In this document: in pieces, positions 12,919-62,729 of the stretch | How positions within the stretch are numbered: the first letter of the stretch is position 1 | How the letters are laid out: every line of letters begins with the position of its first letter | Origin: an uncultured Bacilli bacterium | Lineage (GTDB): Bacteria > Bacillota_I > Bacilli_A > RF39 > UBA660 | Reading direction: 5' to 3' | Length of the DNA: 64,000 bases | NCBI GenBank assembly: GCA_944372415.1 | Contig: CALVZA010000001.1 | Coordinates: 512 to 64,511, forward strand | Notes under the pieces: model-generated | What the model was told of the DNA's origin: nothing | The model's input: only the letters and a program-made list of their open reading frames with translations | The model's database searches: none | Program-made: the position numbers and the translations under genes

Positions 12919-15159
12919 ATGAGCAGGAAGCATAGAATAATAATAAGCATAACAGGAATATGTATAATAGCACTTATTCTATTAAGTTTAACATATGGTT
13001 ATTACTTAACAAATATAAAAGGAAATACAAATACAAAAAGTATAACTGCATCTACAGCTGATTTAAAATTAGTATATGGAGATGGTAGTGGAACACTTGC
13101 TCCAACTGGTGTAATTCAACCAGGAACTACAATAGGGACTAAAACATTTACAGTAACTAATGACGGAAATAGAACAGTAAGTGATTATGTAGTTGTATTA
13201 GAAAATGTTTATAATGAATTTTCTAGACCAGAAGATATAGTTTATACATTGACATGTACTTCTACAAGTGGAAACTGTAATGGAGTTAGTGAGGAAACTC
13301 AATTTCCAAGCGGTGGTGGTACAATAGATGATGGTGATGGTTTTGGAATAGTAGTAATCAATACAATAGAACCAGATGTAACTCATAACTATACTATAAC
13401 ATTAAAATACTTAGAACCAAATGTAGATCAAAGTGAAGATATGGGTAAAACTGTAACAGGTAAAATAAATATAAAAGATGCTCAAGACATAAATCCATAT
13501 AAGAATCAAGATGGAACATTAGCAAAGGCAATAATAGATAATGCAATAAATGTAACAAATGAAGAAAAAAATAACGGGCATGCAGTATTTAGAACAACAC
13601 CACTTACTAAACCAGCTGAAGAAACTACAATGTATTATAATGAAGGAACACCAGGAAGTGAAACAACAGCAAATTATCAAACAGTAAGAAATCCAACAAC
13701 AAGTTACTATTTTACGTATGGAGATACATTCACATTGTCAGGGTCTAGTCATACTATAAAAAATAATGATGGAAGTGCATTAAAAGCAGTAAAATATTCA
13801 ACTGGATATGCAACATTAAAAGGGAAATATATTGTAAGTTATAGTGGTAGTTCATCATCAACTCCAGTATCAGGCGCTAATAAAAAAACAATATATTATG
13901 TAGTAAATGCTACCTCAACACAACTTACTTATACAACTGTCTCTTCTGGATTAAAGCAAAATGAAAGATATATAACATATGGAGACAGTTATAAATTTAA
14001 TAAGAAAACAGGGAACTATGACATAATAAATAAAAGTGGTAGTGCATTAAAAACAGTAAAATATAAAGATAATATAAGTAAATTAGTAGGTAAATATATA
14101 GTTAGTACATCAGGTTCAACAAGTTCAACCCCAGTATCAGGAACTAATAGAAGCACAATATATCAAGTAACTTCTAACTCAACTGAATCACAAATTAAAT
14201 ATAAATCTATAACAAAATCTTCATCATCTTATAATAGTGCGGAAAATACATTAAGTATAACAAATGATGATTATGGAGTATCATACTACTATAGAGGAGG
14301 AGTAGAAGATAACTATGTAAACTTTGCAGGAATGTGTTGGAGAATAGTAAGAATAGAAGGAGACGGTTCTACAAAAATAATATTAGAAGACCAAGATAGT
14401 ACTTGTGCTACAAGTAATGGTAATTGGGTTATACCAACTACAACAGGAGGTACTACTAAAAAAGGAAATTTTGGGTTTACACAATATGCAGCAAATACAT
14501 TAACTGCAAGTGATGGTACAAAAAATTCAAGTACAAGATATTTAATGAACTATTTAAATGGTGGAACAAATAACGATAAATCAATGTCAACAGCATTTAA
14601 GAATTTTCAAACAGGGCCTTTATCAAGTTACTTATCTTATTTAAAAGCAGGAGACTGGTGCTTAAATGATAAAGCTTATGCAACCGGAAGAGATAATACA
14701 ACACCATTAAGTAATCAAGAAATGTTAGATAAACAAATTAAGGGTACAACGTTCTATTATGATTCATATGTTCGTTTAGATGGAAAAACACCAAAAGAAC
14801 CAACATTAAAATGTAATGGAACAAATATGAGTAAGTTTGCAGATAATATAGACATGTATGTAGGAACATTAACAGCAGACGAAATAGTATATGCAGGAGG
14901 AAAAGTATCTACTAGCAATTCAAATTTTTATTTAATAAATGATTATCAAAAATCAAATAGTTTATCCTTTTGGTCTTTGTCGCCTTACTACTTCTTCAGC
15001 AGCCACGATTACGCATTCTACGTGGACTTCAATGGGAATTTGAACGACATCAATGTGGGCTACGGCTACAACTCGTTCCGTCCCGCAGTTTTTCTGAAAT
15101 CTAATGTTCAAATAACTGGTGGAGATGGAACAAAGGCAAATGCCTACACAATAGGATAA
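12919..15159 (+). CDS. secreted 746-aa protein: TasA/camelysin-like N-terminal module with SipW-type signal, two ~87-aa tandem repeats, and a C-terminal lectin-like domain with a putative DGR variable region
   Basis: ATG at 12919 after TAGGAG; the ORF-track start at 12838 lies inside recO and its terminator. Signal/anchor ...ALILLSLTYGYY, then STADLKLVYG...IQPGTTIGTKTFTVTNDG. Repeats at 13705-13947 and 13966-14220. C-terminal CWRIVRIEG...FWSLSPYY...FRPAVFL. Confidence 0.65.
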   Translation: MSRKHRIIISITGICIIALILLSLTYGYYLTNIKGNTNTKSITASTADLKLVYGDGSGTLAPTGVIQPGTTIGTKTFTVTNDGNRTVSDYVVVLENVYNEFSRPEDIVYTLTCTSTSGNCNGVSEETQFPSGGGTIDDGDGFGIVVINTIEPDVTHNYTITLKYLEPNVDQSEDMGKTVTGKINIKDAQDINPYKNQDGTLAKAIIDNAINVTNEEKNNGHAVFRTTPLTKPAEETTMYYNEGTPGSETTANYQTVRNPTTSYYFTYGDTFTLSGSSHTIKNNDGSALKAVKYSTGYATLKGKYIVSYSGSSSSTPVSGANKKTIYYVVNATSTQLTYTTVSSGLKQNERYITYGDSYKFNKKTGNYDIINKSGSALKTVKYKDNISKLVGKYIVSTSGSTSSTPVSGTNRSTIYQVTSNSTESQIKYKSITKSSSSYNSAENTLSITNDDYGVSYYYRGGVEDNYVNFAGMCWRIVRIEGDGSTKIILEDQDSTCATSNGNWVIPTTTGGTTKKGNFGFTQYAANTLTASDGTKNSSTRYLMNYLNGGTNNDKSMSTAFKNFQTGPLSSYLSYLKAGDWCLNDKAYATGRDNTTPLSNQEMLDKQIKGTTFYYDSYVRLDGKTPKEPTLKCNGTNMSKFADNIDMYVGTLTADEIVYAGGKVSTSNSNFYLINDYQKSNSLSFWSLSPYYFFSSHDYAFYVDFNGNLNDINVGYGYNSFRPAVFLKSNVQITGGDGTKANAYTIG
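14977..15096 (+). other. adenine-depleted, NNC-codon block inside the CDS (candidate DGR variable region)
   Basis: About 50% GC and 25 A per 120 nt in an AT-rich gene. 22 of 40 codons are NNC and the intervening codons are A-free. Confidence 0.5.
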
Positions 15160-15166
15160 AAATAAA

Positions 15167-15189
15167 GATAAGAATTTTTAATTCTTATC
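15167..15189. other. perfect 10-bp hairpin (possible terminator of the 746-aa gene)
   Basis: gataagaatt/aattcttatc with a 3-nt loop. The A/T-rich flank is upstream rather than downstream on the + strand. Confidence 0.4.
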
Positions 15190-15215
15190 GTCCATGAACT
15201 GAAAACTGATTAGTT

Positions 15216-15241
15216 ATCCAGCGAAAACCCTTTCGCTGGAT
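15216..15241. other. GC-rich perfect 11-bp hairpin with a 4-nt loop
   Basis: atccagcgaaa-ACCC-tttcgctggat. Flanked by ATGAACT direct repeats (15194-15200 and 15240-15246). Confidence 0.4.
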
Positions 15242-15308
15242 GAACTATAAAATACGTTAAAACAGTATTAGCGTAAGCGAGAATATATAAATAATAAAAA
15301 AAAGAAGA

Positions 15309-15332
15309 CAAATGCATCGTTAGATGCATTTG
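15309..15332. other. perfect 10-bp hairpin with a 4-nt loop, preceded by an A run (reads as a minus-strand terminator)
   Basis: caaatgcatc-GTTA-gatgcatttg. An A-rich tract at 15291-15308 gives a T run on the minus strand. Confidence 0.4.
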
Positions 15333-15383
15333 CGGATTTTATGAAAAATTTATGTTATAACTTTAAATTAAATAGGTGATAGT

Positions 15384-16559
15384 ATGAAAAAAATAATATT
15401 GTTTATTTTGTTGTTATTTCCTATTAATGTATTTGCTATAAAAATAGATAGTTTAAGTGCTATAACAGTTAATAGAAATACAGATGAAATATTATATGAA
15501 AAAGATATTAATAAACAATTACCTATTGCTAGTCTTACTAAAATAATGACTACTATAGTATCTTTAGAAAATATAAAAGATTTAAACGAAACTATAACTA
15601 TTACTGATAATGATATTAATAATTTACTTGGTTATCAAACAATAGGACTTAAAGTTAATGATATAATTACTTATGAAGAATTGTTATATAGCACTATGAT
15701 GTATAGTGCTGCTGATAGTGCACAGGCACTATCAAATCACATATTTGATAACAAAGATAAATTTATAGATAAAATGAATGAATTAGCAAATAAAATAGAA
15801 ATGAATAATACCCATTTTTCTAATTCAGTAGGAAAGGATGAAAATAATTATTCAACTAGTTTTGATTTATATAAATTAATTGATTATGCGTTGAATAATA
15901 AAAATTTTTATAAAATATATACTACTAAAAATTATACTATTAAATCTTTAAATAAAACTATAAATAATAACGTTAATAATATTATAAAACAAAATAATTT
16001 AGAAAATAATAATATTAAAATAGATGGATATAAAGGTGGATATACTAATAAAAGTGGTTTATCTTTTAGTGGTATATCTAATATTGATAATAATGAAATT
16101 ATAGTTATTACTCTTAATGCTATTGATAATATAGATACTAATAAACATATAATAGATAGTTTAGAAATATTAAATTATATTAAAGATAATTATTCTAATA
16201 GAGTTATATTAGAGAGTAATAAGTTAGTAGATAATATTGTTTATAAAGATAATAAAAAAGAAAGAAATTATGAAATAAAATCAAATAGTACTATAAAATA
16301 TTTTTTAAAAAATGATATAAATTTAAATTATTTAAAAGTTTTTTATGAAGGTATTACTGTAATAGATAATAGTATTAAAGAAAATGATAAATTAGGAAGT
16401 ATTAAAATATTTTATGAAGACAAATTATTAAGTGAAGTTCCTGTCAAATTTAATAAAAAATATATAGTAAAAGAAACTAAAGATTATACAAATTTAATTA
16501 TATTTTTATGTATTTGTATTGTTGGTTTAATTGTATTTAAACCTAAGAGAAAACGTTAG
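15384..16559 (+). CDS. D-alanyl-D-alanine carboxypeptidase (peptidase S11, low-molecular-weight PBP)
   Basis: Signal peptide, SxxK motif in PIASLTKIMT, C-terminal TM anchor followed by KPKRKR. Confidence 0.8.
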   Translation: MKKIILFILLLFPINVFAIKIDSLSAITVNRNTDEILYEKDINKQLPIASLTKIMTTIVSLENIKDLNETITITDNDINNLLGYQTIGLKVNDIITYEELLYSTMMYSAADSAQALSNHIFDNKDKFIDKMNELANKIEMNNTHFSNSVGKDENNYSTSFDLYKLIDYALNNKNFYKIYTTKNYTIKSLNKTINNNVNNIIKQNNLENNNIKIDGYKGGYTNKSGLSFSGISNIDNNEIIVITLNAIDNIDTNKHIIDSLEILNYIKDNYSNRVILESNKLVDNIVYKDNKKERNYEIKSNSTIKYFLKNDINLNYLKVFYEGITVIDNSIKENDKLGSIKIFYEDKLLSEVPVKFNKKYIVKETKDYTNLIIFLCICIVGLIVFKPKRKR

Positions 16560-16611
16560 TTAATTATTATGTCGATGATGAAATAGTAGTATTTCAATGG
16601 AATAAAATAAA

Positions 16612-16638
16612 AAATTGATAATTAAATTTTATCAATTT
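16612..16638. terminator. bidirectional terminator between the convergent PBP gene and pta
   Basis: aaattgataa/ttatcaattt stem flanked by A and T runs. Confidence 0.6.
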
Positions 16639-17630
16639 TTATTTGCTTGATTACAAGTTATTGCAATTACTCCAACTATATCATCACTGTTACAACCTCT
16701 AGATAAATCATTAATTGGTTTTCTTATTCCTTGAGTAATTGGGCCATAAGCCTTAGCATTAGCCATTCTTTCAGTTATCTTATAAGCAATATTTCCAGCA
16801 TCTAAATCAGGGAATATTAGTATATTAGCATCTCCTTGAATAGCACTTATTGGAAATTTAGATTTAGTTACACTAGGTACTATTGCAGCATCTAATTGTA
16901 ATTCTCCATCTGCAATTATATTAGGATATTCAGTTTTAAATTTACTTACTGCATCTCTTACTTTACTTACGTCATCGCATTTGCTAGAACCATTAGTAGA
17001 GTGAGATAGAAATGCAATTTTAGGTATATCTCCAACTAGGTTTTCAAAAGTTTTACTTGATGAATAAGCGATACACACTAACTCATCACTAGTAGGATTT
17101 TGTATCATACCACAGTCAGAATAAATAAATATTCCGTTACTTCCTAAGTTTTTATTATCAAGTTCCATTAAGAAGAAAGATGAAACAACTTTTGAGTCAG
17201 GTGCAGTTTTTACTGTTTTTAAAGCAGCTCTTAAAACATCACTAGAAGAGTGTGTTGCACCAGCAACTAATCCATCTGCATAATCTAAGTACACTAACAT
17301 ACAACCAAAGTATAAGAAATCATTCAATATTGTATTTTTTGCCTCTTCGTAAGTTAAACCTTTAGATTTTCTTATTTCATAAAACTTATCTATTAATTCA
17401 TTAGTTAACTCACTTGTTTTAGGATTAATTATTTTGATTCCGTCAATATTTATATTATTTTTAAAACATAATTTATTAATATTAACAGGTTCTCCAACTA
17501 AAATAATATTAGCAAAATCTAGTTCTATTACTTTACTAGCAGCCTTTAGTGTTCTTATATCATCTGTTTCAACTAAACAAATAGTCTTTTTATTATTCTT
17601 TGCTTTTTCAATTAATTTATCTATTATCAT
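16632..17630 (-). CDS. pta: phosphate acetyltransferase
   Basis: 332 aa from the ATG preceded by AAGGTGA. Pta core motifs (LVAGATHSSSDVLRAAL, PINDLSRGCN). Confidence 0.9.
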   Translation of the reverse strand: MIIDKLIEKAKNNKKTICLVETDDIRTLKAASKVIELDFANIILVGEPVNINKLCFKNNINIDGIKIINPKTSELTNELIDKFYEIRKSKGLTYEEAKNTILNDFLYFGCMLVYLDYADGLVAGATHSSSDVLRAALKTVKTAPDSKVVSSFFLMELDNKNLGSNGIFIYSDCGMIQNPTSDELVCIAYSSSKTFENLVGDIPKIAFLSHSTNGSSKCDDVSKVRDAVSKFKTEYPNIIADGELQLDAAIVPSVTKSKFPISAIQGDANILIFPDLDAGNIAYKITERMANAKAYGPITQGIRKPINDLSRGCNSDDIVGVIAITCNQANKN

Positions 17631-17663
17631 TTTAATCACCTTTATAATTTTATCATATGTTAT

Positions 17664-18293
17664 TCATTTTGTTATATTTTTTTGTTTAGGAGTTTTTGTT
17701 AATGCTTTATAAAATTCTAAAGTTAAAATTCCTAATTGTGAATCTGATAAAAGAGTTCCTTCTAAAAATAGATTACTATCTACTTTACTAAATTTTAGTT
17801 CGTAATCTGCATCTTGAAAATAGTAATTTTTCGCTTGAACATATTCTCTTATAAATTCTCTTATAGTTCTACCATTTCCTTCTCTAAAGGGATGAATTCT
17901 AATTAATCTGTGATATACGCTAGCTAAAGCTTCTGCATATAAATAATCACTATATGCATTATTTATTACTCTTTCGTCAATATTATTAAGTAATTCGTTT
18001 AAAGATAATTCTATAAGATTAAAGTCAGTAAAAGAAGTTTGTTTTGCTATATTAGTTTTTCTATACTTTCCAGCAAAATCATATATATCTTCAAAAATAA
18101 ATTTATGAATATTGCATAAATGTTTTGCATCAAAATTTCCTTCTATTGGTTTTAAATTTAATATAGTTAATTTTTTCAATGAAACTTCTTTTTCTATTTG
18201 TTTTAGTTGTTCATTATTAGTTATATTTAATTTATTTTTTAATATGTCGGTATTAGGAATAAAATAATTATTCCATTCATCATTATTTATCAT
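17664..18293 (-). CDS. fic: Fic family protein (putative AMPylase), VbhT/FicT-like
   Basis: Canonical Fic motif HPFREGNGRTIREF. N-terminus NYFIPNTDILKNKLNI resembles class I Fic toxins. Confidence 0.85.
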   Translation of the reverse strand: MINNDEWNNYFIPNTDILKNKLNITNNEQLKQIEKEVSLKKLTILNLKPIEGNFDAKHLCNIHKFIFEDIYDFAGKYRKTNIAKQTSFTDFNLIELSLNELLNNIDERVINNAYSDYLYAEALASVYHRLIRIHPFREGNGRTIREFIREYVQAKNYYFQDADYELKFSKVDSNLFLEGTLLSDSQLGILTLEFYKALTKTPKQKNITK

Positions 18294-18477
18294 TTATATT
18301 ACTCTTTTCTTTTTGTGTTAGAGTTATTATTTTTTCATCATTTACAATTTCTTTTTTTAATTTTTTTATATTTGTTTTTTCTAATTTTATATCTTCATCT
18401 ATATTTATAATTGATGCTGCTTCTTTGATTGCTTTTGATAATATTTTTAGTTCTTTTATTTTTTCTTCTTTTTCCAT
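18283..18477 (-). CDS. small coiled-coil protein overlapping fic (possible cognate antitoxin/regulator)
   Basis: 64 aa, 11-nt overlap with the fic start, GGAGG RBS. No canonical (S/T)xxxE(G/N) inhibitory motif seen. Confidence 0.4.
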   Translation of the reverse strand: MEKEEKIKELKILSKAIKEAASIINIDEDIKLEKTNIKKLKKEIVNDEKIITLTQKEKSNINDK

Positions 18478-18543
18478 TTAATCCTCCTATTTATATAATA
18501 ATTTTAACATAATTTATATTATGTTTGTAAAAAAAACAAAAAA

Positions 18544-18571
18544 TTAGCACTCATATATTGACAAGTGCTAA
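18544..18571. promoter_or_regulatory. CIRCE operator 1 (HrcA binding site), atypical 10-nt spacer
   Basis: TTAGCACTC-N10-AAGTGCTAA versus consensus TTAGCACTC-N9-GAGTGCTAA. Overlaps the -35 element. Confidence 0.75.
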
Positions 18572-18586
18572 GCATAATATTATAAT
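18558..18586 (+). promoter_or_regulatory. sigma-A promoter of the hrcA-grpE-dnaK operon
   Basis: TTGACA (18558-18563), 17-nt spacer, TATAAT (18581-18586). Confidence 0.75.
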
Positions 18587-18590
18587 GTAG

Positions 18591-18617
18591 TTAGCACTGG
18601 TGAATAATGTGTGCTAA
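18591..18617. promoter_or_regulatory. CIRCE operator 2
   Basis: TTAGCACTG-N9-GTGTGCTAA (8/9 match in each arm), just downstream of the -10 element. Confidence 0.75.
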
Positions 18618-18629
18618 GGAAGTGATCTT

Positions 18630-19622
18630 GTGGGTGAAAGACAAAAAAAATTGTTAAAGGCCATAGTTGAGTCTTATATAAAAAATGTTAAACCTGTTGG
18701 GTCTAAATCGTTGTGTAAAAAATTTAATTGTTCATCTGCAACAATTAGAAATGATATGATGTATTTAGAAGAGTTAGGTTATTTGGAAAAAACTCATACT
18801 TCAAGTGGTAGAATACCTAGTGAAAAAGGATATCATTATTATGTAGAAAATTTAATGAAATTAAAGGATATTACTGGAGAAGATGTACTAAAGTTACAAA
18901 CAATACTTAATAATAAAGATTTAGTATTAAGTGATGCAATTAATAAATGTATGGAAATAATCAGTGATATTACCAATTATACTAGTATAGTATTAGGAAA
19001 AAATAGTTATAATAATGTGTTAAAACAAATTAGTATAATACCAATTGATGAAAAAAAAGTTGTTTCTGTATTAGTTACAAATACTGGACACGTTGCTAAT
19101 AGACAAGTTATTATTCCTGAAGATATAAGTGTTAAAGAAATAGTAAAAACTTGTGAAATAATAAATAAATCATTAGTTGGAACTCCATTAAATGAAATAT
19201 TAGAAAAATTAGAATTTGTTATTAAACCTGAGATTGCTAAAACAATGCAAAAATACGAAGAATTATGTAGTTTCTTCTATGATGCTTTTTATGAATTCAA
19301 AGACTTAAATAAAGATGATGTATTCTTTGGAGGAAAAACAAATATACTTAAGCAACCAGAATATAATGAACCAGAAAAAATAAAAGAAATTATAGAAAAG
19401 TTAGAAAATGTAGAACTAGTAAAAAATATAGAAACAGATGATAAAGAAATTAAAGTTTATATTGGAGAAGAAAATAATTTTGATCCTGATACAACAGTAA
19501 TAAAAACTAGCTATAATGTTGACGGTGAAGTTGGAACACTTGCTATCATAGGTCCTAAGAGAATGGAATATGATAAAGTTGTAACATTATTAAACTTCTT
19601 AAAAAACTACATAGAAAGGTAA
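18630..19622 (+). CDS. hrcA: heat-inducible transcription repressor HrcA
   Basis: GTG start after GGAAGTGA. N-terminal winged helix (RQKKLLKAIVESYIKNVKPVGSKSL) and synteny. Confidence 0.9.
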   Translation: MGERQKKLLKAIVESYIKNVKPVGSKSLCKKFNCSSATIRNDMMYLEELGYLEKTHTSSGRIPSEKGYHYYVENLMKLKDITGEDVLKLQTILNNKDLVLSDAINKCMEIISDITNYTSIVLGKNSYNNVLKQISIIPIDEKKVVSVLVTNTGHVANRQVIIPEDISVKEIVKTCEIINKSLVGTPLNEILEKLEFVIKPEIAKTMQKYEELCSFFYDAFYEFKDLNKDDVFFGGKTNILKQPEYNEPEKIKEIIEKLENVELVKNIETDDKEIKVYIGEENNFDPDTTVIKTSYNVDGEVGTLAIIGPKRMEYDKVVTLLNFLKNYIER

Positions 19623-44188: not shown

Positions 44189-44740
44189 ATGAAAGATAAA
44201 AAGAAAAAAAAGAATTTAAAAAATAATATTAAAAACGCATTAAAATCATATAAAACAATTATATATATATCATTTCTAATAAATATAATATTATTAATTT
44301 TTACATATTATACTATTACTAGTAACAAAATATATACATTTAGTGGTAGTGATGACTATATAGAAGTAAAAGACGGTCTAATTGCTTTAAATACAGATAT
44401 AAATTTAATAAATGGAAATAATATAAAATATATAAACTCTAAAGATTATAACATAAAAAGTTATAAAATAGGTTATTATGTAATGGACAATACTAAATTA
44501 GTAGAAATAATATCTAATTCTATAGAATTAGAAGAAGAAGACATTAAATTAAGTGAACTTATTAATAATTTTACATCTTTTAATATAGTAGAAAAAAATA
44601 ATATAAAAAAATACTTTACACCTTATAAAAAAAGTTTAATTGATAAAGGTTTATACCTAGTATTAGAGGCAAAAACAGATACTAATGAAACAATTTTAAG
44701 TAAAGTAAAATTAAATATGACAAAAATTTCAAAATATTGA
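44189..44740 (+). CDS. hypothetical membrane-anchored protein
   Basis: Basic N-terminus (KDKKKKKN), one TM segment, 183 aa; no recognised domain. Confidence 0.4.
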   Translation: MKDKKKKKNLKNNIKNALKSYKTIIYISFLINIILLIFTYYTITSNKIYTFSGSDDYIEVKDGLIALNTDINLINGNNIKYINSKDYNIKSYKIGYYVMDNTKLVEIISNSIELEEEDIKLSELINNFTSFNIVEKNNIKKYFTPYKKSLIDKGLYLVLEAKTDTNETILSKVKLNMTKISKY

Positions 44741-44750
44741 ATTTTTTTCC

Positions 44751-44780
44751 TTGACTTCGTGTCATTACGTATAATATAAT
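44751..44780 (+). promoter_or_regulatory. sigma-A promoter of TasA-like gene 2
   Basis: TTGACT (44751-44756), 18-nt spacer, TATAAT (44775-44780). Confidence 0.65.
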
Positions 44781-44804
44781 TTTATTGTAGGAGGATAAAG
44801 AAAG

Positions 44805-45512
44805 ATGAGTACAAAACAAAAATTAACTTTAGGAATTGCAGCTATATTTATGGTTACATTAACAATAGTAGGAGTTACATATGCGTACTTTGTAACAAGA
44901 GTAACAGGAGAAACAACAGAATCAATTAATATTAGTACAGCAAATGTTGGTTCAGTTGAATACCAACCAGGAAATGGAAGTAGTGATGTAGTGACACTTG
45001 CTGATGTGTTACCAGGAACAACTTTATATAAAAGTTTTAAAGTTCATAACACTTCAGAAGATACAGCATCAAACTTTAGTATTTTTATGACATCAACACC
45101 TACTGCAAGTACACCTCAATTTGTTCATGCTAAAGATGACTCTGGTTGTTATGTAAGTACTGTAAAGCCTTCAAACGATGGAGAGGCAACAGCAACATGT
45201 TTTGATGGCACAGCTTACAATAATGTTTATGTAACATTATATGAAGTTGATGATACTGAATTTGCTACTGTTCAAAATGATGGTACAATAACAAGTCCTG
45301 ATGTTTTAACAGATGTTATTACTGCTGAAACACGTGTTGCAGCAATTGCTGGCACAGGAACAACTCAAGCTACTCAGGATTTAAAAACTGACATTAGTAT
45401 TGATGGTAATGCTACTAAGTATTATGTTTTAAAAGTTGAGTATAAAAATACTGGTTCTAACCAAAATATTGAAAATGATGCTGCTTTGTCTTTAAAAGCA
45501 AGTATTAAATAA
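44805..45512 (+). CDS. TasA/camelysin-like secreted protein with SipW-type signal peptide (235 aa)
   Basis: ...TLTIVGVTYAYF signal; then ISTANVGSVEY, LADVLPGTTLYKSFKVHNTSEDTA, FVTLYEVDD, YYVLKVEYKNTGSNQN...LSLKASIK. Perfect AGGAGGA SD. Layout parallels B. subtilis TasA. Confidence 0.6.
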   Translation: MSTKQKLTLGIAAIFMVTLTIVGVTYAYFVTRVTGETTESINISTANVGSVEYQPGNGSSDVVTLADVLPGTTLYKSFKVHNTSEDTASNFSIFMTSTPTASTPQFVHAKDDSGCYVSTVKPSNDGEATATCFDGTAYNNVYVTLYEVDDTEFATVQNDGTITSPDVLTDVITAETRVAAIAGTGTTQATQDLKTDISIDGNATKYYVLKVEYKNTGSNQNIENDAALSLKASIK

Positions 45513-45541
45513 AAATCAAATGAAAATTTGATTTTTTTTTG
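45513..45541 (+). terminator. intrinsic terminator
   Basis: aaatcaaa/tttgattt stem merging into a T run. Confidence 0.7.
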
Positions 45542-45607
45542 ATATATTATTTGATTATATATTAAAAATTATATATAATTTAATTAGAAAATATTTGGAG
45601 GTATGAT

Positions 45608-46372
45608 ATGAAAAAACAAAATCTTTATGCTATTATTGTAACAACTATAGCAATTATTTTATTAACTATAGTAAGTATTTTATTTTTTAACAGAAACAGA
45701 AATACAGTTATTACTGAAGAAGAAGCATTAAATATTGCATTTAAAAAAGCAAATGTTTCAAGTGATGATGTAAAAGTTTTGTCATCTAATAAAATAAATA
45801 ATAAATATGAAATAGAATTTAAAGATAATCAATATGAATATGATTTAGAAATTAATTTAAATACAGGAGAAATATTAGAATTTGATAAAGATGTAATAGA
45901 TAAAAATATAATAAAAAATGAAGAGTCAAATAAAAATATCACTGAAAAAGAAGCAAAAAAAATAGCCTTAGATTATTTAAAATTAAAAGAAAGTGATGCA
46001 ACTTTTACAAAAAGTAAATTAGATTTAGAAAATGGAATTATGGTTTATGAATTGGAACTGTTCACAAATGATACAGAATATGAAATTAATATAAATTCTA
46101 ATACTAAGGAAATTGTAAAAGTATCTAAAGATATTATAAAAAATAGCAATAGTGTAAATAATTCTAATTATATTGGAGTAGAAAAAGCTAAAGAAATAGT
46201 ATTAAATCATAACAATATTAATGACTCTGTTATATGGAAAAATGCAGAATTTGATTTTGAAAGAAATATAGCTATATATGAAATAGAATTTTACTATAAT
46301 AATATTGAATATAGTTATGAAATTAATGCAATTACTGGAGATATTATACAATTTGAAATTGATAAGAATTAA
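45608..46372 (+). CDS. membrane-anchored protein with three PepSY-like repeats
   Basis: TM anchor, then three repeats of the ITE(E/K)EA..IA......(D/S)........YE(I/L)E......YE..IN..TGEI pattern. Confidence 0.7.
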   Translation: MKKQNLYAIIVTTIAIILLTIVSILFFNRNRNTVITEEEALNIAFKKANVSSDDVKVLSSNKINNKYEIEFKDNQYEYDLEINLNTGEILEFDKDVIDKNIIKNEESNKNITEKEAKKIALDYLKLKESDATFTKSKLDLENGIMVYELELFTNDTEYEININSNTKEIVKVSKDIIKNSNSVNNSNYIGVEKAKEIVLNHNNINDSVIWKNAEFDFERNIAIYEIEFYYNNIEYSYEINAITGDIIQFEIDKN

Positions 46373-52114: not shown

Positions 52115-52534
52115 ATGAAAGGGTTTGTTTTAGATTATATTAATGAGAATGAGTTTAAAAAATTAGAAAGAGCATTAAAAAAATATAATATGCTTGCTTA
52201 TAAAAAATTAAACTTTGAATATTATCCAGAATTAAGAAAAGGTAATTTTATAGGTGAATTAATTAGTAAAAATAAAAGTGAAAAAACTGAAACTTATGAA
52301 TTGAAATTACCAAGCGACAGTATGTTTAAACAAGTTCATGGGGATGTAACATTAAAATATATTGTATATAAAGAACAAAATATAGTCATGTTAGATACAT
52401 TAACACCTACTGAAATTTTATTAGAAGGTCATATGGCAGAATTAACAACATATAAGGGTGTTATGATAAGCAAAGCAAATGCATCAAAAGATATGTTTAA
52501 AATTGATTTATTAAATATGTTACAAAATAAATAA
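52115..52534 (+). CDS. hypothetical protein (139 aa)
   Basis: Strong AAGGGGG RBS and consensus promoter. No signal peptide. The segment VTLKYIVYKEQNIVMLDTLTP vaguely recalls RelE/ParE-type strands, but no firm assignment is possible. Confidence 0.4.
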   Translation: MKGFVLDYINENEFKKLERALKKYNMLAYKKLNFEYYPELRKGNFIGELISKNKSEKTETYELKLPSDSMFKQVHGDVTLKYIVYKEQNIVMLDTLTPTEILLEGHMAELTTYKGVMISKANASKDMFKIDLLNMLQNK

Positions 52535-52604: not shown

Positions 52605-52633
52605 TTGACAACATATTTATCATTTGATATGAT
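52605..52633 (+). promoter_or_regulatory. sigma-A promoter of TasA-like gene 3
   Basis: TTGACA (52605-52610), 17-nt spacer, TATGAT (52628-52633). Confidence 0.65.
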
Positions 52634-52657
52634 TTTATTGTAGGAGGATAAAGAAAG

Positions 52658-53467
52658 ATGAAATCAGAAAATAATGGAAAGATTGCAATAGCTGTAGTAG
52701 CAATGTTTGTTGTTGCATTATCAATAGTAGGATTTACTTATGCATACTTTACTGCACAAGTACAAGGTAATACTGCTGATAAGAGTGTTGAGGTTACAGC
52801 AGGAAGGTTAGAAATAGTTTATGCTAATGGTAATGAAATATTAGCACAAAATATTGTGCCTGGATGGGTTAGTAACGGAGATTATTATTTTGATACTGTA
52901 TGTTCAAGTACTGATGAAAACGAAGATGGTATTTATGAAATCAAAGCTGTTTCAAAATCTGCTATAGCAGAAGCTAAAAATAAATGTTCAGAAACAGATC
53001 AAAGAACACCAGCAACTCTTAGTCCAACAACAGCAGATGGACTTACTGATAAAGTAACATTTTCTGTAAGTAATTCAGCAGAAAATACTGCTGATAACAG
53101 TTATATTATTAGATTAACAAATATTACTAATGGACTAGCTGAAGCAGATAGAAAAAATTTCTTTGTTACATTATATGATGGAGAAGATGCTGTAGTTTGG
53201 AGTGGTAATTTAGCTGCTTCTGGAACTCAAGTTATTGTACCAGCTGCTAGAACTATTGCAGATGATGATGAAACACAAAATTATTCTATTTCTTTAACTT
53301 ATAAAAACATTGAGGGTGCACAATCTAGTAAAGGTGTTGGAGTTAAAGCTACAGTAGAAGTAATTGGTGTTGTTGAAAATGACGATTCTGAGTGGGTTGA
53401 TGCAGATGGAAGAACTATAACTTTTGCAAGTCCTAATACTAACGAACCTACTAATGGTTTAAGTTAA
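52658..53467 (+). CDS. TasA/camelysin-like secreted protein with SipW-type signal peptide (269 aa)
   Basis: ...ALSIVGFTYAYF signal; VEVTAGRLEIVY, NIVPGW, FVTLYDGED, YSISLTYKNIEGAQSS...VKATVEVIG. Leader and RBS identical to the gene at 44805. Confidence 0.6.
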   Translation: MKSENNGKIAIAVVAMFVVALSIVGFTYAYFTAQVQGNTADKSVEVTAGRLEIVYANGNEILAQNIVPGWVSNGDYYFDTVCSSTDENEDGIYEIKAVSKSAIAEAKNKCSETDQRTPATLSPTTADGLTDKVTFSVSNSAENTADNSYIIRLTNITNGLAEADRKNFFVTLYDGEDAVVWSGNLAASGTQVIVPAARTIADDDETQNYSISLTYKNIEGAQSSKGVGVKATVEVIGVVENDDSEWVDADGRTITFASPNTNEPTNGLS

Positions 53468-53478
53468 TTATTTTAAGA

Positions 53479-53506
53479 AAAGAACTATTTTAAAGTTCTT
53501 TTTTTT
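53479..53506 (+). terminator. intrinsic terminator
   Basis: aaagaact/agttcttt stem merging into a T run. Confidence 0.7.
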
Positions 53507-53587
53507 GTCAATTTATGACAAAAAATTTATTTTTATTTAATTATAAATATTTTTATGTTATACTTTATATAGTAAGGTGGAGTAGAA

Positions 53588-56981: not shown

Positions 56982-57427
56982 ATTGCTCCACCTCTTACGT
57001 GAGTATTTTAGCAAAAAAATATTCAATTTGCAAATTAAAATAACTGATAAACATTATCTTAGAAAAAGATAAAAATAAATATTGAATAAATAAAAGAAAA
57101 TCATTTTAATTTGCCAAATAAATTTAAATTAAAAAAAGGGTAAATTAGTTTTTATATGCAATAATTTATAATAAAAAAGGAAAAAATATGATTTAATAGT
57201 TCATTTAATCATATTTTTAAAATTATTGTTTTTTAAGTTAATAACACTGGGAGCATCCTAGATTTATGAGTTATAATCCTCATTCAGCAATATCAAAAAT
57301 TGTGTAGAAAAACATTAAATTTTTGAAAAAATAATAAATTTTTGTACCATAAAAAGTGTTAAATTTTAATATTTAGCATATTTTTTTTATTTTTTGTGAT
57401 AAAATTAATTAAAGAAAGAGTGATAGT

Positions 57428-57952
57428 ATGTTTGATAAATTTGTACCTGATATATATGCTAAAAGTATTTATACAATTGATTATAAGAGTTTAAAAAAAA
57501 GTAAAGTTAAATGTTTAATATTTGATTTGAATAATACTATTGCACCTTTGACATTAAAAAAACCAAATAAGAAGTTAATAGATTTATTTGAAGAATTAAA
57601 AGATATGAAATTTAAAATATATATAGTTAGTAATAGTACTAAGAAGAGAGTAGAACCTTTTAAAGATATTTTATGTGTTGATTCATCTTATTTATCTATG
57701 AAACCTAGTTTAAGAAAATATAAAAAAATATTTGAAATAAATAAGTTTAAAGATAATGAAATAGCATGTATTGGAGATGAATTAATGACTGATATATGGG
57801 CTGCTAATAGAATGAATTTTGTTAGTATTTTAGTAAATCCTATAGGGACTAAAGAATATGTTTCTACTAAATTTGGTCGTTTATTTGAAAATTTTATAAT
57901 AAATAAATTAACTAATAAGAAACTTTTTAGAAGAGGTAAGTATTATGAATAA
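57428..57952 (+). CDS. yqeG: YqeG family HAD-IIIA phosphatase
   Basis: KCLIFDLNNTI (DxDxT-like), VSNS, GDELMTDI. yqeG-yqeH synteny. Confidence 0.85.
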   Translation: MFDKFVPDIYAKSIYTIDYKSLKKSKVKCLIFDLNNTIAPLTLKKPNKKLIDLFEELKDMKFKIYIVSNSTKKRVEPFKDILCVDSSYLSMKPSLRKYKKIFEINKFKDNEIACIGDELMTDIWAANRMNFVSILVNPIGTKEYVSTKFGRLFENFIINKLTNKKLFRRGKYYE

Positions 57953-58907
57953 AATATGCTTTGGTTGTGGTAGTACTTTACAAAGTATTAATGAATTAGA
58001 ACAAGGTTATGTTAGTACTGATAAAATAAATGATGCTAAATATTGTAAAAGATGTTATAGACTTACACATTATGGAGAACTTATAAATAATGATAATGAA
58101 AAGAGTATTAAAACTATAATAGATACTGTTAATAAAGACAATACTTTTAAAATATACATAGTAGATTTTTTAAATATTAATAATAATACTATAGATATTT
58201 ATAATAAGATAAAAGGTAATAAATTATTTCTAATTAGTAAAATAGATTTAATTAGTAATTCTATTAATATAAATAGAATAATAGAAAATATTAAGAAAGT
58301 TTATAATATATATAGTGTTAAATGTATTAGTACATTAAAAAAATATGGAATAAATAATTTAATTAATTATTTAGATATTAATAATATAAAAAAATGTACT
58401 ATACTAGGTCCTACTAATAGTGGTAAAAGTAGTTTTATAAATAAATTAATTGAATTATATAATCCTAAATTAAATAAATTAACTATTTCTAATAGAAGAA
58501 ATACTACATTAGAATTTATAAATATTAAGTTAAATAATAATTTAACTATTATAGATAGTCCTGGTTTTTTAATTAAAGATTATGGTCTAAAAAGTAAATA
58601 TAAAAACATTATTAAACCAATTACTTTTAATATGAAAACTAATGAAGTATTATGTATAGATAAATTTTATATTAAGTTTAGTAATAATACTAGTATTACT
58701 ATATATAGTTATGAAAATATTTATGTTAAAAAATATTATAAAGAAATAAATTTTGATTATAATATAGATATTGATAAAAATACAGATTTATGTATTAATG
58801 GATTTGGTATTTTAAGTATTAAAGAAAAGAATAATATTAGTATATTTAATTTAGATAAAGAATTATTTAGTATTAGAAAAAGTATATTTGGTGGTAATAA
58901 TGAATAA
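57945..58907 (+). CDS. yqeH: ribosome biogenesis GTPase YqeH (circularly permuted)
   Basis: N-terminal zinc ribbon CFGCGS...CKRCYRL; G4 precedes G1 (GPTNSGKSS) and DSPG. Confidence 0.85.
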   Translation: MNKICFGCGSTLQSINELEQGYVSTDKINDAKYCKRCYRLTHYGELINNDNEKSIKTIIDTVNKDNTFKIYIVDFLNINNNTIDIYNKIKGNKLFLISKIDLISNSININRIIENIKKVYNIYSVKCISTLKKYGINNLINYLDINNIKKCTILGPTNSGKSSFINKLIELYNPKLNKLTISNRRNTTLEFINIKLNNNLTIIDSPGFLIKDYGLKSKYKNIIKPITFNMKTNEVLCIDKFYIKFSNNTSITIYSYENIYVKKYYKEINFDYNIDIDKNTDLCINGFGILSIKEKNNISIFNLDKELFSIRKSIFGGNNE

Positions 58908-60672
58908 TAAGATACATATAATGAGCGAAAATCTTGCCAATAAAATTGCAGCAGGTGAAGTAATTGAAAGAGTAAGTAGTGTTGTTAAAGAATTAGTAGA
59001 AAATAGTATTGATGCTAAATCTAATAGTATTAGAATAGAACTTATAGATAGTGGTATTAAAAGTTTGACGGTTATTGATGATGGAATAGGAATGAATAAA
59101 AGTGATGCTCTTCTTGCTTTTTCTAGACATGCAACTAGCAAATTATTAAAAGATGATGATTTATTTTTTATTAATACATTAGGATTTAGAGGAGAAGCGC
59201 TGCCTAGTATAGCGAGTGTTTCTAAAGTGAAACTAAAGACTAGTACAGGTAGTGTTGGTACAGAAATTATTATTCATGGAGGCAAATTAATTAGTCAAAT
59301 AGATAGTGATGCTAGAATTGGTACTAGCTTTGAAGTAACTGATCTATTTTATAATACGCCTGCGAGATTAAAATATTTAAAAAGTGATACAACTGAATTA
59401 TCTAATATTGTTATGTATGTTGAAAAACTTGCTCTAACACATCCTGAAATTAAATTTAAACTTATAAATAATAATAAAGAAATAATTAGTACTAGTGGTA
59501 GTAATAATTTGCTTAAAACTATTTATGAAATATATGGTTATTTAGTTAGTAGCAATATGATTAAAATAAGTGCTAGTAATGAAGATTATGATATAGATGG
59601 TTATATTTGTAAACCTAGTATTTTAAAATCTAATAGAAATCATATGACTACTATTGTTAATGGAAGAATAGTTAGAAATGTGGAGTTAAATAAAGCTATT
59701 AATGATGGTTATTATACATATAAACCTGATATTAAATACCCTATAGTAGTATTAAATATTAGTACAGATCCCACTATAATAGATGTAAATATACATCCTA
59801 CTAAACAAGATATAAAGTTTTCTAAACAAATAGAATTAAATGAGTTAGTTACTAAGGCAATAAAAGATGCTTTATATAAGTCTATGTTAATCCCTAAAAT
59901 AGAAGTAAAAGAAACTAGTAGTAATAATGAAATAAATATTTTGAAAGAAGATGTTAAAGAATATGTTGTAAATAAAGAAATAAATGTATTAAATGATGAA
60001 CAGGTTAAGTTTGATTTTAAAAAAGTTACTAATGAAGTTGACGATAATACAGATACTAATACTCTTCTTAAAAAAAACGAAAGTATTAAAAAGTTAGAAT
60101 TATATGTATGCGGTTTAGTTATGGGAACTTATATTATATGTGAAAATGAAACTAATATGTATTTAATTGACCAACACGCTGCTCAAGAAAGAATAAATTA
60201 TGAAAGGTATTTAGAACACTTAACAAATACTAAAGTTAATACTACATCGCTTTTGATACCAATTACTATAGAACTTAGTCCGAGTGATTATATAAAGTTT
60301 ATAGAGAGAAAAGAAATATTAGATAACATGGGATTTGTTATAGAAGAATTTGGAATAAATACCATATTAATAAAAGAGCATCCTACTTGGTTATTAAGAG
60401 GTTTTGAACAAGAAAGTATAGAAAAACTTGTAGATTTAGTAATTAATGATTATAATGTTGATAGGATAAAGTTTAACGATTCTATTGCAAAAACTTTAGC
60501 ATGTAAAATGAGTGTTAAAGGTAATACAAGAATTACTAATGATGATATGCAAAGTATAATAAATGAACTTGTATTATGTGATAATCCTTATAATTGTCCT
60601 CATGGAAGACCAACAATAATAACATTTACAAAATATGAGTTAGAGAAAATGTTTAAAAGAGTAATGAATTAG
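58900..60672 (+). CDS. mutL: DNA mismatch repair protein MutL
   Basis: ANKIAAGEVIERVSSVVKELVENSIDA, DDGIGM, GFRGEAL; C-terminal dimerisation domain with DQHAAQERI. Confidence 0.95.
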   Translation: MNNKIHIMSENLANKIAAGEVIERVSSVVKELVENSIDAKSNSIRIELIDSGIKSLTVIDDGIGMNKSDALLAFSRHATSKLLKDDDLFFINTLGFRGEALPSIASVSKVKLKTSTGSVGTEIIIHGGKLISQIDSDARIGTSFEVTDLFYNTPARLKYLKSDTTELSNIVMYVEKLALTHPEIKFKLINNNKEIISTSGSNNLLKTIYEIYGYLVSSNMIKISASNEDYDIDGYICKPSILKSNRNHMTTIVNGRIVRNVELNKAINDGYYTYKPDIKYPIVVLNISTDPTIIDVNIHPTKQDIKFSKQIELNELVTKAIKDALYKSMLIPKIEVKETSSNNEINILKEDVKEYVVNKEINVLNDEQVKFDFKKVTNEVDDNTDTNTLLKKNESIKKLELYVCGLVMGTYIICENETNMYLIDQHAAQERINYERYLEHLTNTKVNTTSLLIPITIELSPSDYIKFIERKEILDNMGFVIEEFGINTILIKEHPTWLLRGFEQESIEKLVDLVINDYNVDRIKFNDSIAKTLACKMSVKGNTRITNDDMQSIINELVLCDNPYNCPHGRPTIITFTKYELEKMFKRVMN

Positions 60673-60684
60673 AAAGGGTATGTT

Positions 60685-60795
60685 ATGAAAGATATATTAG
60701 AAGATGATAAATCATTTTATTTTATAGTAGGTTTAGCTTTAATAATTCCTATTATAATAGGCTTAGTTTATGTTTTTTCAGTTGTTTATTTATAA
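60685..60795 (+). CDS. possible 36-aa single-TM micro-protein
   Basis: Not in the ORF track. MKDILEDDKSFYFIVGLALIIPIIIGLVYVFSVVYL behind GAAAGGG. Confidence 0.3.
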   Translation: MKDILEDDKSFYFIVGLALIIPIIIGLVYVFSVVYL

Positions 60796-60884
60796 AATAA
60801 TCATATTTATATATGTAAATATATTTATTTTATCTTTTTTTTTAAAATAAAGTATAGTAAAATGATTATAGTAAGGTGATACTA

Positions 60885-62132
60885 ATGTATGAAATTATAA
60901 AAAAACAGAAATTATTTTTTATTTCTTTAATTGGCATAGTCGTTATAAGTATGATTCTATTAACAACTTATGCGTATCAAACATTAGAAGTGGATTATAA
61001 AGGTAATGAAGAATTGAATGTTAATGCAGGAGTATTAGATGTTGCATTTACTTCTACTAGAAGAATAAATTTACAAAATATGCCTTTATTAAATGATTAT
61101 AATACATCTGATTATACTGAATTTATAATTGATAATTCTAAAAGTACAGGTGATGTTTCATATAAGATAAGATTAGTAAATCTAGAATATAGTAATGAAT
61201 TGATTTCTAATGATTTTAAATATACTATAGTTAAAGTTGATAAAAATAATAATTTAAATGTAATTGGAGAAGGGGACTTTTCAGATTTAGTTTCTAATGA
61301 ATATGATTTTAAATTTAACGATGGAAATTATATAGAAATAAAACAAGGTAATAAAGATAAAATAAGATTATATTTATGGTTAAAAGAGAGTGAAAATGAT
61401 CAAAATTATTTAGAAAATACTAATTTTAAAGGAGTAATTGAAATTAATAGTGTGTTTTCTAAAGATTTAGATGAAGAAGTATTTACTAAATTTAATATAT
61501 ATGGAAATACTGTTATTAATTACAAAAATAATACAAGCGAACAGTCAGTTTTAAATCCAGCAGAAATAAAGTCTTTAGGTACTTTAGTAGAAGATCAAAA
61601 TAGTATTTATTATGGCAAATATAAAATAAATATTATTAATATTGACGGCAAAGTAAATTCTATTTATTTAAATGAACCATTAAGATGTATTAATGAAGTA
61701 TGTGATTATATTGATGCTATTAAGAAAAAAGTAGTTAGAAAAATTGGTGTTAAAAAATTAAATGAGTTTGAATGGAATTTAGAAAATGATAATAATTTAA
61801 AAGTATATGCTAATATACCAACTGATTTAAATATTAAAAATGATGTAATGTATACAGAAATAACTAAATATAACCCTAATACTAGTGATTATATTAATGG
61901 AGTTGGTAATAATACTGTTTATTTAGATAATAGTATAGGATTATCTATAACTGATTTTAAATCTTTAGAAGAATTTAATAATTATATTAGTAGCAATAAT
62001 GTAAGTTTATATTATCAGTTAGCAAATCAAGATGAAACAGAAAATATTATAGCTGATTTATATTCAATTATTAATAGAAATATAAAAGTTAATGATGGAA
62101 TTATAGATTCGTCTAATATTGAAATTAAATAG
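60885..62132 (+). CDS. TasA/camelysin-like N-terminal module with SipW-type signal, fused to a ~200-aa C-terminal extension (415 aa)
   Basis: ATG at 60885 after AAGGTGA. ...MILLTTYAYQ signal; LNVNAGVLDVAF, YKIRLVNLEY, IRLYLWLKESENDQNYLENTNFKGVIEINSV. Confidence 0.5.
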   Translation: MYEIIKKQKLFFISLIGIVVISMILLTTYAYQTLEVDYKGNEELNVNAGVLDVAFTSTRRINLQNMPLLNDYNTSDYTEFIIDNSKSTGDVSYKIRLVNLEYSNELISNDFKYTIVKVDKNNNLNVIGEGDFSDLVSNEYDFKFNDGNYIEIKQGNKDKIRLYLWLKESENDQNYLENTNFKGVIEINSVFSKDLDEEVFTKFNIYGNTVINYKNNTSEQSVLNPAEIKSLGTLVEDQNSIYYGKYKINIINIDGKVNSIYLNEPLRCINEVCDYIDAIKKKVVRKIGVKKLNEFEWNLENDNNLKVYANIPTDLNIKNDVMYTEITKYNPNTSDYINGVGNNTVYLDNSIGLSITDFKSLEEFNNYISSNNVSLYYQLANQDETENIIADLYSIINRNIKVNDGIIDSSNIEIK

Positions 62133-62134
62133 TA

Positions 62135-62168
62135 AATGATAGATTGATTTAAAACTATCATTTTTTTT
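62135..62168 (+). terminator. intrinsic terminator
   Basis: aatgatag/ctatcatt stem merging into a T run. Confidence 0.7.
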
Positions 62169-62201
62169 ATTTGTATTGTATAATTTAATAGGTGATTAAA
62201 A

Positions 62202-62729
62202 TTGAAAAATATTGATATAAAAAAAGAAAAACATACTTATAAAGATTCATTAAGAGAACTAATACCATATGCTGTTATAATAATAGTTGTTGTTTTAATA
62301 AGAACATTTTTAGTAACTCCTATAAAAGTAAATGGTACAAGTATGACTAATACTTTACAACATGGAGATACTATGATTTTAAATAAAATTGGTATGAAAA
62401 TAAGTGATATTAAAAGATTTCAAATAGTTGTTATCAAAACAGATGAATCATATTTAATAAAGAGAGTTATAGGTTTACCTGGAGAAACTATAAAATATAG
62501 TGACGGAAAGTTATATATAAATAATAAAGTAATTAATGATCCATATTATAAAGATAATACAGAAGATTTTGATGAAGTAAAAATTCCTGAAGATAATTAT
62601 TTTGTAATGGGAGATAATAGAAATAATTCTAAAGATAGTAGAATTATTGGTACTATAAAAAAAGAAGATATTTTAGGAACTACTAAGTTAATTATATTTC
62701 CAATAAGTGATATAGGTATAGCTAAGTAA
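62202..62729 (+). CDS. lepB: signal peptidase I (bacterial P-type, Ser-Lys dyad)
   Basis: TTG start after AGGTGA. VNGTSMTNTL (Ser), LIKRVIGLPGE (Lys), GDNRNNSKDSR. Confidence 0.9.
   Translation: MKNIDIKKEKHTYKDSLRELIPYAVIIIVVVLIRTFLVTPIKVNGTSMTNTLQHGDTMILNKIGMKISDIKRFQIVVIKTDESYLIKRVIGLPGETIKYSDGKLYINNKVINDPYYKDNTEDFDEVKIPEDNYFVMGDNRNNSKDSRIIGTIKKEDILGTTKLIIFPISDIGIAK

Follow-up and report, generated by a model that had tools for sequence, protein, structure and literature searches.

The DNA analysed here, a window of 64,000 nucleotides on contig CALVZA010000001.1 of an uncultured Bacilli bacterium (assembly GCA_944372415.1; G+C content 23.3%), carries four plus-strand genes whose products share an N-terminal module of ~190–235 amino acids. 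We refer to them as M1 (12919–15159), M2 (44805–45512), M3 (52658–53467) and M4 (60885–62132), all positions being those of the window. A first-pass annotation had described the four as a dispersed family of proteins akin to TasA and camelysin (CalY), and the family itself is real: open reading frames are present at all four places, and each product opens with a short, basic N-terminus and a hydrophobic helix of 18–19 residues that ends in LTYGYY (M1), VTYAYF (M2), FTYAYF (M3) or TTYAYQ (M4). A six-frame search for T[YWF][AG][YFWA][FYQLW] behind a hydrophobic helix returned these four genes and one irrelevant minus-strand match, and a hidden Markov model (HMM) of the combined N-modules matched exactly four open reading frames within the window.

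The division into two short and two decorated long forms proved a fair description. M2 (235 amino acids, predicted cleavage after TYA27) and M3 (269 amino acids, predicted cleavage after TYA29, with an insertion containing Cys82 and Cys110 and an acidic tail) are similar in size to TasA and CalY. In the 746-residue M1, the N-module (residues 1–190, 12919–13488; predicted cleavage after TYG27, a conserved post-signal segment YYLTNIKGNTNTKS and a Cys113/Cys120 pair) is followed by a tandem repeat (residues 278–341 and 367–431, 13750–14211) and by a conserved C-terminal domain with four cysteines (residues 441–746, 14239–15159), a candidate ligand-binding passenger. M4 (415 amino acids, putative cleavage after TYA30) combines a divergent N-module (residues 1 to ~185) with a C-terminal part that contains Cys268 and Cys273. 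The frames of both long forms are open further upstream, from 12838 for M1 and from a GTG at 60876 for M4. We place the start of M1 at the ATG at 12919 because its homologues begin MNRKQKII... and an AGGAG precedes this codon, and that of M4 at the ATG at 60885 because homologues support this N-terminus; both agree with the starts originally proposed. As for the neighbourhood, the flanking blocks were named correctly: M1 is framed by RecO and an S11 D-Ala-D-Ala carboxypeptidase, M2 by PBP2B plus a 183-amino-acid open reading frame before it and a PepSY protein and then Lon after it, M3 by RuvB plus a 139-amino-acid open reading frame before it and FtsE after it, and M4 by MutL before and LepB after it.

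Do these proteins have more in common than a type of signal peptide? If the resemblance were limited to the signal, with four unrelated mature parts, one would expect what is seen for M4 in pairwise blastp, where scores are weak (E 0.002–0.02), and Pfam matches on the window proteins indeed centre on residues 3–85. Pairwise blastp among M1, M2 and M3, however, gives E-values of 1e-9 to 1e-11 across 64–97 amino acids, and profile–profile alignments span the whole module, last strand included: hhalign pairs the M1 family with the M2 family (probability 99.6%, E 2.5e-24; M1 1–189 with M2 1–235) and the M4 family with the M2 family (probability 95.6%, E 1.3e-8; M4 6–179 with M2 3–225), the latter alignment taking in the closing strand RLYLWLKESENDQNYLEN / YYVLKVEYKNTGSNQNIEN, while M3 matches the M2-family HMM end to end (residues 8–222, E 3e-18). 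The M3 match and the two family alignments refute a resemblance confined to the signal peptide, a reading to which we attach practically no credence. The annotation had staked its proposal on homology of the modules past the signal peptide, and this homology is now borne out over their full length. The landmarks it listed pair up in the family alignments, the final strand with its QN motif among them; the PG landmark is missing from M4. As judged from these alignments, M1–M4 are true paralogues that share the whole beta-rich module.

The module probably represents a divergent, distant branch of the TasA/camelysin beta-sandwich superfamily (PF12389, Peptidase_M73) rather than a canonical member. 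In the Pfam search, M2 scores 22.6 bits over residues 3–85, the gathering cutoff of PF12389 being 22.5 bits, and M1, M3 and M4 give no match. Relatives of the four extend this link: PF12389 is matched by 32 of 43 M2 orthologues at E≤0.01 (best E 9e-8), by 19 of 73 diverse family representatives at E≤0.001, by 4 of 34 proteins in the M1 set and by 3 of 43 in the M4 set, with the best M3 orthologue at 19.8 bits. Two full-length M2 orthologues, P0049 and P0071 (P numbers denote relative proteins, L numbers related genomic or metagenomic loci), match profile positions 2–174 of 196. Stripped of their signals, relatives still match with E-values of 8e-5 to 1.5e-3, among them P0358 (23.0 bits), P0049 (E 3e-4, profile 48–174) and P0071 (E 1.5e-3). 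AF2 predicts beta sandwiches with confidence for both M2 (predicted local distance difference test score, pLDDT, 86; sandwich over residues 51–235) and M1 (pLDDT 83). When the M1 model was compared with 350,542 PDB chains using Foldseek, the TasA fibre came first (8aur_A, probability 0.99, E 6e-3, 209 columns, TMt 0.35), FimA in a donor-strand complex second, and the cannula subunit CanA at ranks 4 and 21; those at ranks 1, 2 and 4 are all donor-strand filaments. The same model found no usable match among viral structures, NCBIfam returned nothing relevant for the whole M1–M4 proteins, and TasA did not turn up when PDB sequences were searched with the family profiles of M2 and M1. With M2 and many relatives reaching the cutoff and the TasA fibre as the top fold for M1, the proposed relation to TasA and camelysin is supported as a probable, distant one.

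The family resembles TasA and CalY in the signal helix ending G-T-aromatic-A-x-F, the conserved N-terminal strand, the motifs ..TAxL..V.Y.. and ..PG..K.F.V.N.., the jelly roll and the closing strand with QN. It differs in that the SipW-cognate signal model fails, that neither sipW nor tapA lies beside any examined family gene and that similarity to TasA itself is barely detectable; moreover, family genes are monocistronic and dispersed in housekeeping synteny, and many members carry long C-terminal passengers. The M1–M4 system is thus a divergent variant of the TasA superfamily, sipW-unlinked and modular, and not a canonical TasA system. Of the original interpretation, the paralogy, a probable superfamily link and the lack of a tapA-sipW-tasA operon have stood, and two elements have not, namely the class of signal and the wording that the genes were inserted.

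The Pfam name Peptidase_M73 raises the question of whether M1–M4 could be camelysin-type metalloproteases. Apart from that family name nothing speaks for it: neither HExxH nor HxxEH occurs in any of the four, M3 and M4 are devoid of histidine altogether, and the peptidase assignment of CalY is itself regarded as a likely misidentification (PMC11580942). We reject this barely credible reading on the missing zinc-binding motif. Sortase-assembled pilins were likewise rejected, as M1–M4 possess neither a C-terminal LPXTG sorting motif nor a second hydrophobic segment, and so were type IV pilins or pseudopilins, as the conserved motif follows the helix instead of preceding it and no G|F...E is found in the sequences. 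Each protein has a single N-terminal hydrophobic helix, no second transmembrane segment and paired cysteines in its mature part. Together with the absence of LPXTG and HExxH, these features fit extracellular, non-enzymatic, non-sortase subunits.

How might such proteins be processed? The signals had been assigned to the SipW-dependent type, an assignment that does not hold: against TIGR04088, the NCBIfam model of SipW-cognate signals (cutoff 19 bits), M3 scores 11.8 bits (E 0.21) and M1, M2 and M4 give no match, while TasA as a control reaches 41.9 bits. The accompanying statements, that there is no tapA-sipW-tasA operon around M1–M4 and that the only signal peptidase of the window is of the P type, are both correct. 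The latter, a LepB-type signal peptidase I directly after M4 (62202–62729, plus strand; TIGR02227, sigpep_I_bact, 160.9 bits), is a candidate for the processing of M1–M4. The pairing of this peptidase gene with M4 is not conserved: in L021, no S26 gene neighbours the M4 orthologue. Across the window and 50 related loci (396 kb plus 233 kb, 0.63 Mb in all), this LepB is the only S26-like open reading frame near ~70 family genes in a search whose SipW query sequence was approximate, and the Pfam neighbour lists of the related loci contain no S26 gene. It is possible that a SipW resides elsewhere in this genome, unlinked to the family genes. The T-Y-A/G site of M1–M4 fits the -3/-1 rule and lines up with TWA|AF of TasA, whose mature form begins at A28 (the TasA sequence used in the alignments was checked to be identical to 8aur_A).

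The residues around this site are under an unusual degree of constraint. Signal peptides usually evolve faster than mature domains. Among M2 orthologues, residues 1–33 (44805–44903) are nearly invariant: the hydrophobic region (residues 7–24) and TYAYFVTRV (residues 25–33) are 96–97% identical, compared with 37% for the beta sandwich, a contrast that is in part due to ascertainment, given that word- and pattern-seeded searches favour conserved N-termini. Residues 25–33 (97%) are the best-conserved part outside the signal peptide. Cluster representatives from an exhaustive search show the same pattern of invariant N-termini. Synonymous codons vary freely beneath the invariant residues of codons 1–33; therefore, the constraint acts on the protein. 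Because the conserved helix contrasts with the fast evolution usual for signal peptides, the alignments suggest that processing or assembly depends on the particular sequence of the helix and the first mature residues of M2. In the monomer models, the segment behind the signal is poorly placed, with pLDDT below 50 at residues 21–46 of M2 and 26–49 of M1. That this segment is highly conserved and yet finds no place in either monomer model would fit a strand that binds to another subunit. In TasA, the donor strand comprises residues 28–38, directly after the cleavage site, and its deletion abolishes fibres (PMC9674648).

Together, this suggests that M1–M4 polymerise into adhesive surface fibres through donor-strand exchange; M2 and M3 would be the major subunits, and M1 and M4 would act as adhesins or nucleators. 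We put this reading at a probability of roughly 60%. In such a scheme, each protein would be exported by the Sec pathway via its long Gram-positive-type signal peptide and cut after T-Y-A/G, probably by an ordinary LepB-type or an unlinked peptidase. The exposed, conserved N-terminal strand (YFVTRV... in M2; YFLTRIxGNTNxKS in M1-type proteins) would then slot into the neighbouring subunit's beta sandwich and give rise to surface fibres, in which M2 and M3 may be the major subunits. M1 and M4 would use the module as a handle for polymerisation and display their passengers; much like TapA or FimH, they would function as adhesins, tips or nucleators.

Several observations weigh against this reading. 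Judged from its own proteins, the window's link to the superfamily is marginal, since M2 alone reaches the cutoff of PF12389, by 0.1 bit, and once the signal is stripped, none of the mature parts of M1–M4 matches that profile. In hhalign comparisons of the M1 and M2 family profiles with mature TasA, the probability is 11–14% and only the PG..K.F.V.N motif is aligned. Foldseek with the M2 model retrieves generic jelly rolls, with TasA at rank 26 (E 6e-3, template-modelling score ~0.32), and every Foldseek E-value is 1e-3 or weaker; because of these weak scores, the agreement with the TasA-like jelly roll is one at the level of fold. To this add the failure of the SipW-cognate model and the fact that no ER-type peptidase was found in the window and the 50 related loci. 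Finally, the hydrophobic helix is long (~18–19 residues) and unusually conserved, and also fits an uncleaved membrane anchor.

The last point leads to an alternative without any polymerisation, in which the proteins stay on an uncleaved signal anchor or are released as monomers: the sandwich would be a stalk or spacer for the passengers, and M2 and M3, as monomers, would be plentiful in the envelope of a cell with little sortase anchoring. Such an anchor would suit a helix that is strongly hydrophobic and that, in spite of synonymous variation, is ~96% identical among M2 orthologues, which is unusual if the signal is simply discarded. In the M1 model, the helix (H3–30) continues through the TYGYY motif, and the lack of a linked dedicated peptidase gene, like the failure of TIGR04088, is in keeping with a signal that is not removed. 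Oligomers of C. perfringens BsaA, too, behave as membrane-anchored (PMC11580942). What this alternative leaves unexplained are the 6–20 residues behind the helix, conserved yet unplaced in the monomer models, and the finding that donor-strand filaments are the closest folds; in addition, T-Y-A fits a -3/-1 site and aligns with the verified cleavage site of TasA. On balance we regard the non-polymerising alternative as unlikely, while giving it more weight than any other rival of donor-strand assembly.

The expression signals of the two short forms set them apart. Upstream of M2 (promoter-like site and leader at 44751–44804, plus strand), TTGACT-18-TATAAT agrees with the consensus at 11 of 12 positions, and upstream of M3 (52605–52657, plus strand), TTGACA-17-TATGAT with an upstream TG is conserved in 8 species. 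Between the -10 box and the ATG, both genes have the identical 24-nucleotide leader TTTATTGTAGGAGGATAAAGAAAG (44781–44804 and 52634–52657), that of M2 being conserved in 13 species; exact copies of its first 16 nucleotides, TTTATTGTAGGAGGAT, occur in the window only in front of these two genes. Beyond strong ribosome binding, the shared leader may have another function, such as that of a common regulatory site. Given the conserved near-consensus promoters and the identical strong ribosome-binding leader, M2 and M3 are likely the abundant, major subunits. The claim that each of the four genes has its own promoter and terminator was right in part: simple scans detect near-consensus promoters for just M2 and M3 and a GC-type terminator behind M1 alone, and AT-rich hairpins with U-runs follow M2, M3 and M4. 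The hairpin after M2 (45511–45542, plus strand, with a U9 run) goes without a match in a GC-demanding scan; that after M3 lies at 53478–53507 (plus strand), and that after M4 (62134–62168, plus strand, with a U8 run) is weak, with a z-score of -0.65 and an energy that is not significant. A -10/RBS-like motif (RBS, ribosome-binding site) of M4 is conserved in L017 and L021. A riboswitch upstream of M1–M4 is not indicated, because an Rfam scan of the window finds no RNA family.

Strong, conserved expression of a pair such as M2 and M3 would also befit a two-dimensional surface layer or sheath in which M1 and M4 are embedded as decorations. The variable mature domains behind invariant N-termini, as expected of exposed lattice proteins, point the same way, as do archaeal TasA-like proteins (AbpX, cannulae), which form lattices and tubes. 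Yet no S-layer-type domain was found in the proteins, there is no sign of lateral contacts, and the closest characterised bacterial relatives are linear fibres (PMC9674648), so that we deem a surface layer improbable and clearly less likely than a fibre.

What do the long forms carry? The two repeat copies of M1 are 55% identical (E 5e-14). Of 8000 candidates scored, 746 proteins qualify as M1 homologues at E≤0.001, and most of the 120 listed are ~620 amino acids long and share the C-terminal ~300 residues at 60–80% identity; to most of these ~620-residue homologues, the best BLASTP segment covers 41–53% of M1. Across homologues, the C-terminal domain has a mean pairwise identity of 64%. A pointer to its nature comes from Foldseek with the whole M1 model, in which rank 3 is occupied by the IgA peptidase (IgAse) of Thomasclavelia ramosa, 9qa6 (342 columns, probability 0.91, E 0.022), an enzyme with an N-terminal DUF6273/C-type-lectin-like domain (PMC12402451, PMC12237041) that is dispensable for cleavage (PMC12237041). 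PF19789 is matched by 2 of 34 M1 homologues and by 2 of 73 diverse representatives, and Pfam searches with the M1 repeat, the M1 C-terminal domain and the C-terminal part of M4 yield no match. Going by the model, M1 probably ends in a C-type-lectin-like domain of enlarged size and DUF6273 type, an assignment that is tentative because the domain in the window is without a Pfam match. Single relatives of M4 bear LRR_5, dockerin or DUF6273 domains, and two M4 relatives, P0356 and P0358, are chimeras of an M1-like N-module (GITYAYF..GN..DKSV, with a Cys pair) and an M4-like C-terminal part (YGNT..NYGM.KI..YLKEPLRC.N..CDYID). From such architectures we conclude that N-modules and passengers are shuffled between family members.

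Subunits that join a polymer through its own strand or module and bear another functional domain are familiar from TapA, which supplies the first donor strand of the TasA fibre (PMC9674648, PMC10151520), and from FimH. M1 and M4 differ from these in that they keep a whole TasA-like module with the passenger at its C-terminal side, and in that they involve neither a chaperone nor an usher nor an outer membrane. In archaea, AbpA bundling pili, CanA cannulae and AbpX resemble the family as donor-strand beta-sandwich polymers without a linked sipW; unlike it, they come from archaeal hosts, lack detectable sequence similarity in our comparisons and have no passenger domains.

A further parallel is C. 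perfringens, where several remote TasA-like paralogues per genome occur as well: besides BsaA and BsaB there are two further ones, CPE2262 and CPE0554, and donor-strand exchange has been proposed (PMC11580942). In contrast to M1–M4, bsaA is part of a sipW-bsaA-bsaB-bsaC operon. A srtB gene lies beside that operon although BsaA and BsaB have no LPXTG (PMC11580942), and a sortase is likewise found near the family genes of L017. In that locus (4691–5332, 7702–11290), which belongs to another lineage, family genes for proteins of 738 and 429 amino acids are adjacent, a third (301 amino acids) follows 6 kb downstream and the sortase lies ~2.4 kb upstream. The donor strand of BsaA is locked by an isopeptide triad, N35-E56-K74 (PMC11580942), and the M1 family conserves N36 (34 of 34), D55 (31 of 34, with Glu in 2 more) and K75 (33 of 34), positions strikingly close to the BsaA triad; as this likeness is one of numbering, we treat it as a lead. 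The M2 family has the lysine (K75 in 43 of 43) and Asp, Glu or Thr, never Asn, at position 36, and the M3 family has the asparagine (N36 in 9 of 9) and Val or Ala, never Lys, at position 75.

If these strands are drawn together, one arrives at SipW-free donor-strand pili in gut Bacilli, in which the module would be a portable polymerisation handle on swappable adhesin domains (C-type-lectin-like/DUF6273, leucine-rich repeat, dockerin), a chaperone-free Gram-positive counterpart of the two-domain chaperone-usher adhesins. The near-invariant helix would aid assembly at the membrane, an Asn36–Lys75 isopeptide would lock M1-type subunits, and the Asn-only state of M3 and the Lys-only state of M2 would set the order of subunits. 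As a whole this composite picture is speculative and, in all its details, rather doubtful.

The family reaches well beyond the window. Gut metagenomes are the sole source from which the organism is known, and relatives are labelled as metagenome-assembled genomes of uncultured Bacilli or 'Tenericutes'. An exhaustive HMMER search with the M2 profile collected 1554 clusters (at 50% identity) at E≤1e-3 and 448 at E≤1e-10, many of 500–770 amino acids, and relatives have two to four family members per 20–66 kb. The order pbp2B-183aa-M2-lon ... ruvAB-140aa-M3-ftsEX is kept in at least 8 species, with the M3 orthologue 7.8–9 kb downstream of M2 in most related loci and closer in L014 and L009. To speak of genes inserted between housekeeping blocks, as the first-pass annotation did, is thus misleading, since the positions of M2 and M3 are conserved synteny in at least 8 related species. 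The G+C content at third codon positions (GC3) of M1–M4 equals that of the flanking genes. On this match and the synteny we reject a recent horizontal insertion, and for the same two reasons the dispersal of M2 and M3 is ancestral.

TasA-type fibres are known mainly from the biofilms of Bacillus and Clostridium, where a dedicated SipW is present, and from a few archaea. In this lineage, the divergent TasA-like module makes up hundreds of sequence clusters; a genome has several paralogues, and many members are fused to binding-type domains. If they do polymerise, common uncultured gut bacteria would have in them a major adhesion organelle that has gone undescribed so far. They would then also let one see, in nature, whether assembly of the TasA type requires SipW, and would exemplify modular tip adhesins that work without chaperones. 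As for how assembly might be coupled to the membrane, the near-invariant signal peptide offers an unusual clue.

Some neighbouring genes deserve mention. The open reading frame between pbp2B and M2 (44189–44740, plus strand) encodes a 183-amino-acid single-pass membrane protein without a Pfam match, which keeps its place in 13 of 13 related species (phmmer E 1e-64 to 1e-80). We rejected it as a hidden family member or peptidase (hhalign probability 0.2%, no histidine); it could be a component of the divisome or a partner of M2. Between M2 and lon, here and in L001–L003, lies a gene for a membrane protein with three PepSY repeats (45608–46372, plus strand), which is probably outside the system because it is missing at that position in L019. 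The 139-amino-acid open reading frame just upstream of M3 (52115–52534, plus strand) has no Pfam match, and neither has its 140-amino-acid counterpart in L019.

C. perfringens requires type IV pilus genes to secrete BsaA and BsaC. In L021 (1–1898), T2SSE and T2SSF genes (ATPase and platform of a type II secretion or type IV pilus system) lie ~6 kb upstream of the M4 orthologue, and in L022 (15823–16485), an M1-like gene is followed 6 kb further downstream by an N_methyl pilin-like gene; these placements may be coincidence. TasA was first described as a spore-associated protein. Among the related loci are genes for a SpoIVB-type peptidase (S55; L019, 3922–4890), a CotZ-like spore-coat protein (L022, 10047–10496) and a Germane-domain protein (L017, 5359–6282), and from this gene content the lineage is probably spore-forming and walled. 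In the metagenome loci L047–L049, finally, family members have signals that end in GGLTFAYFTS, much closer to the CalY motif GGGTFAYF, and may bridge this branch to the canonical camelysins.

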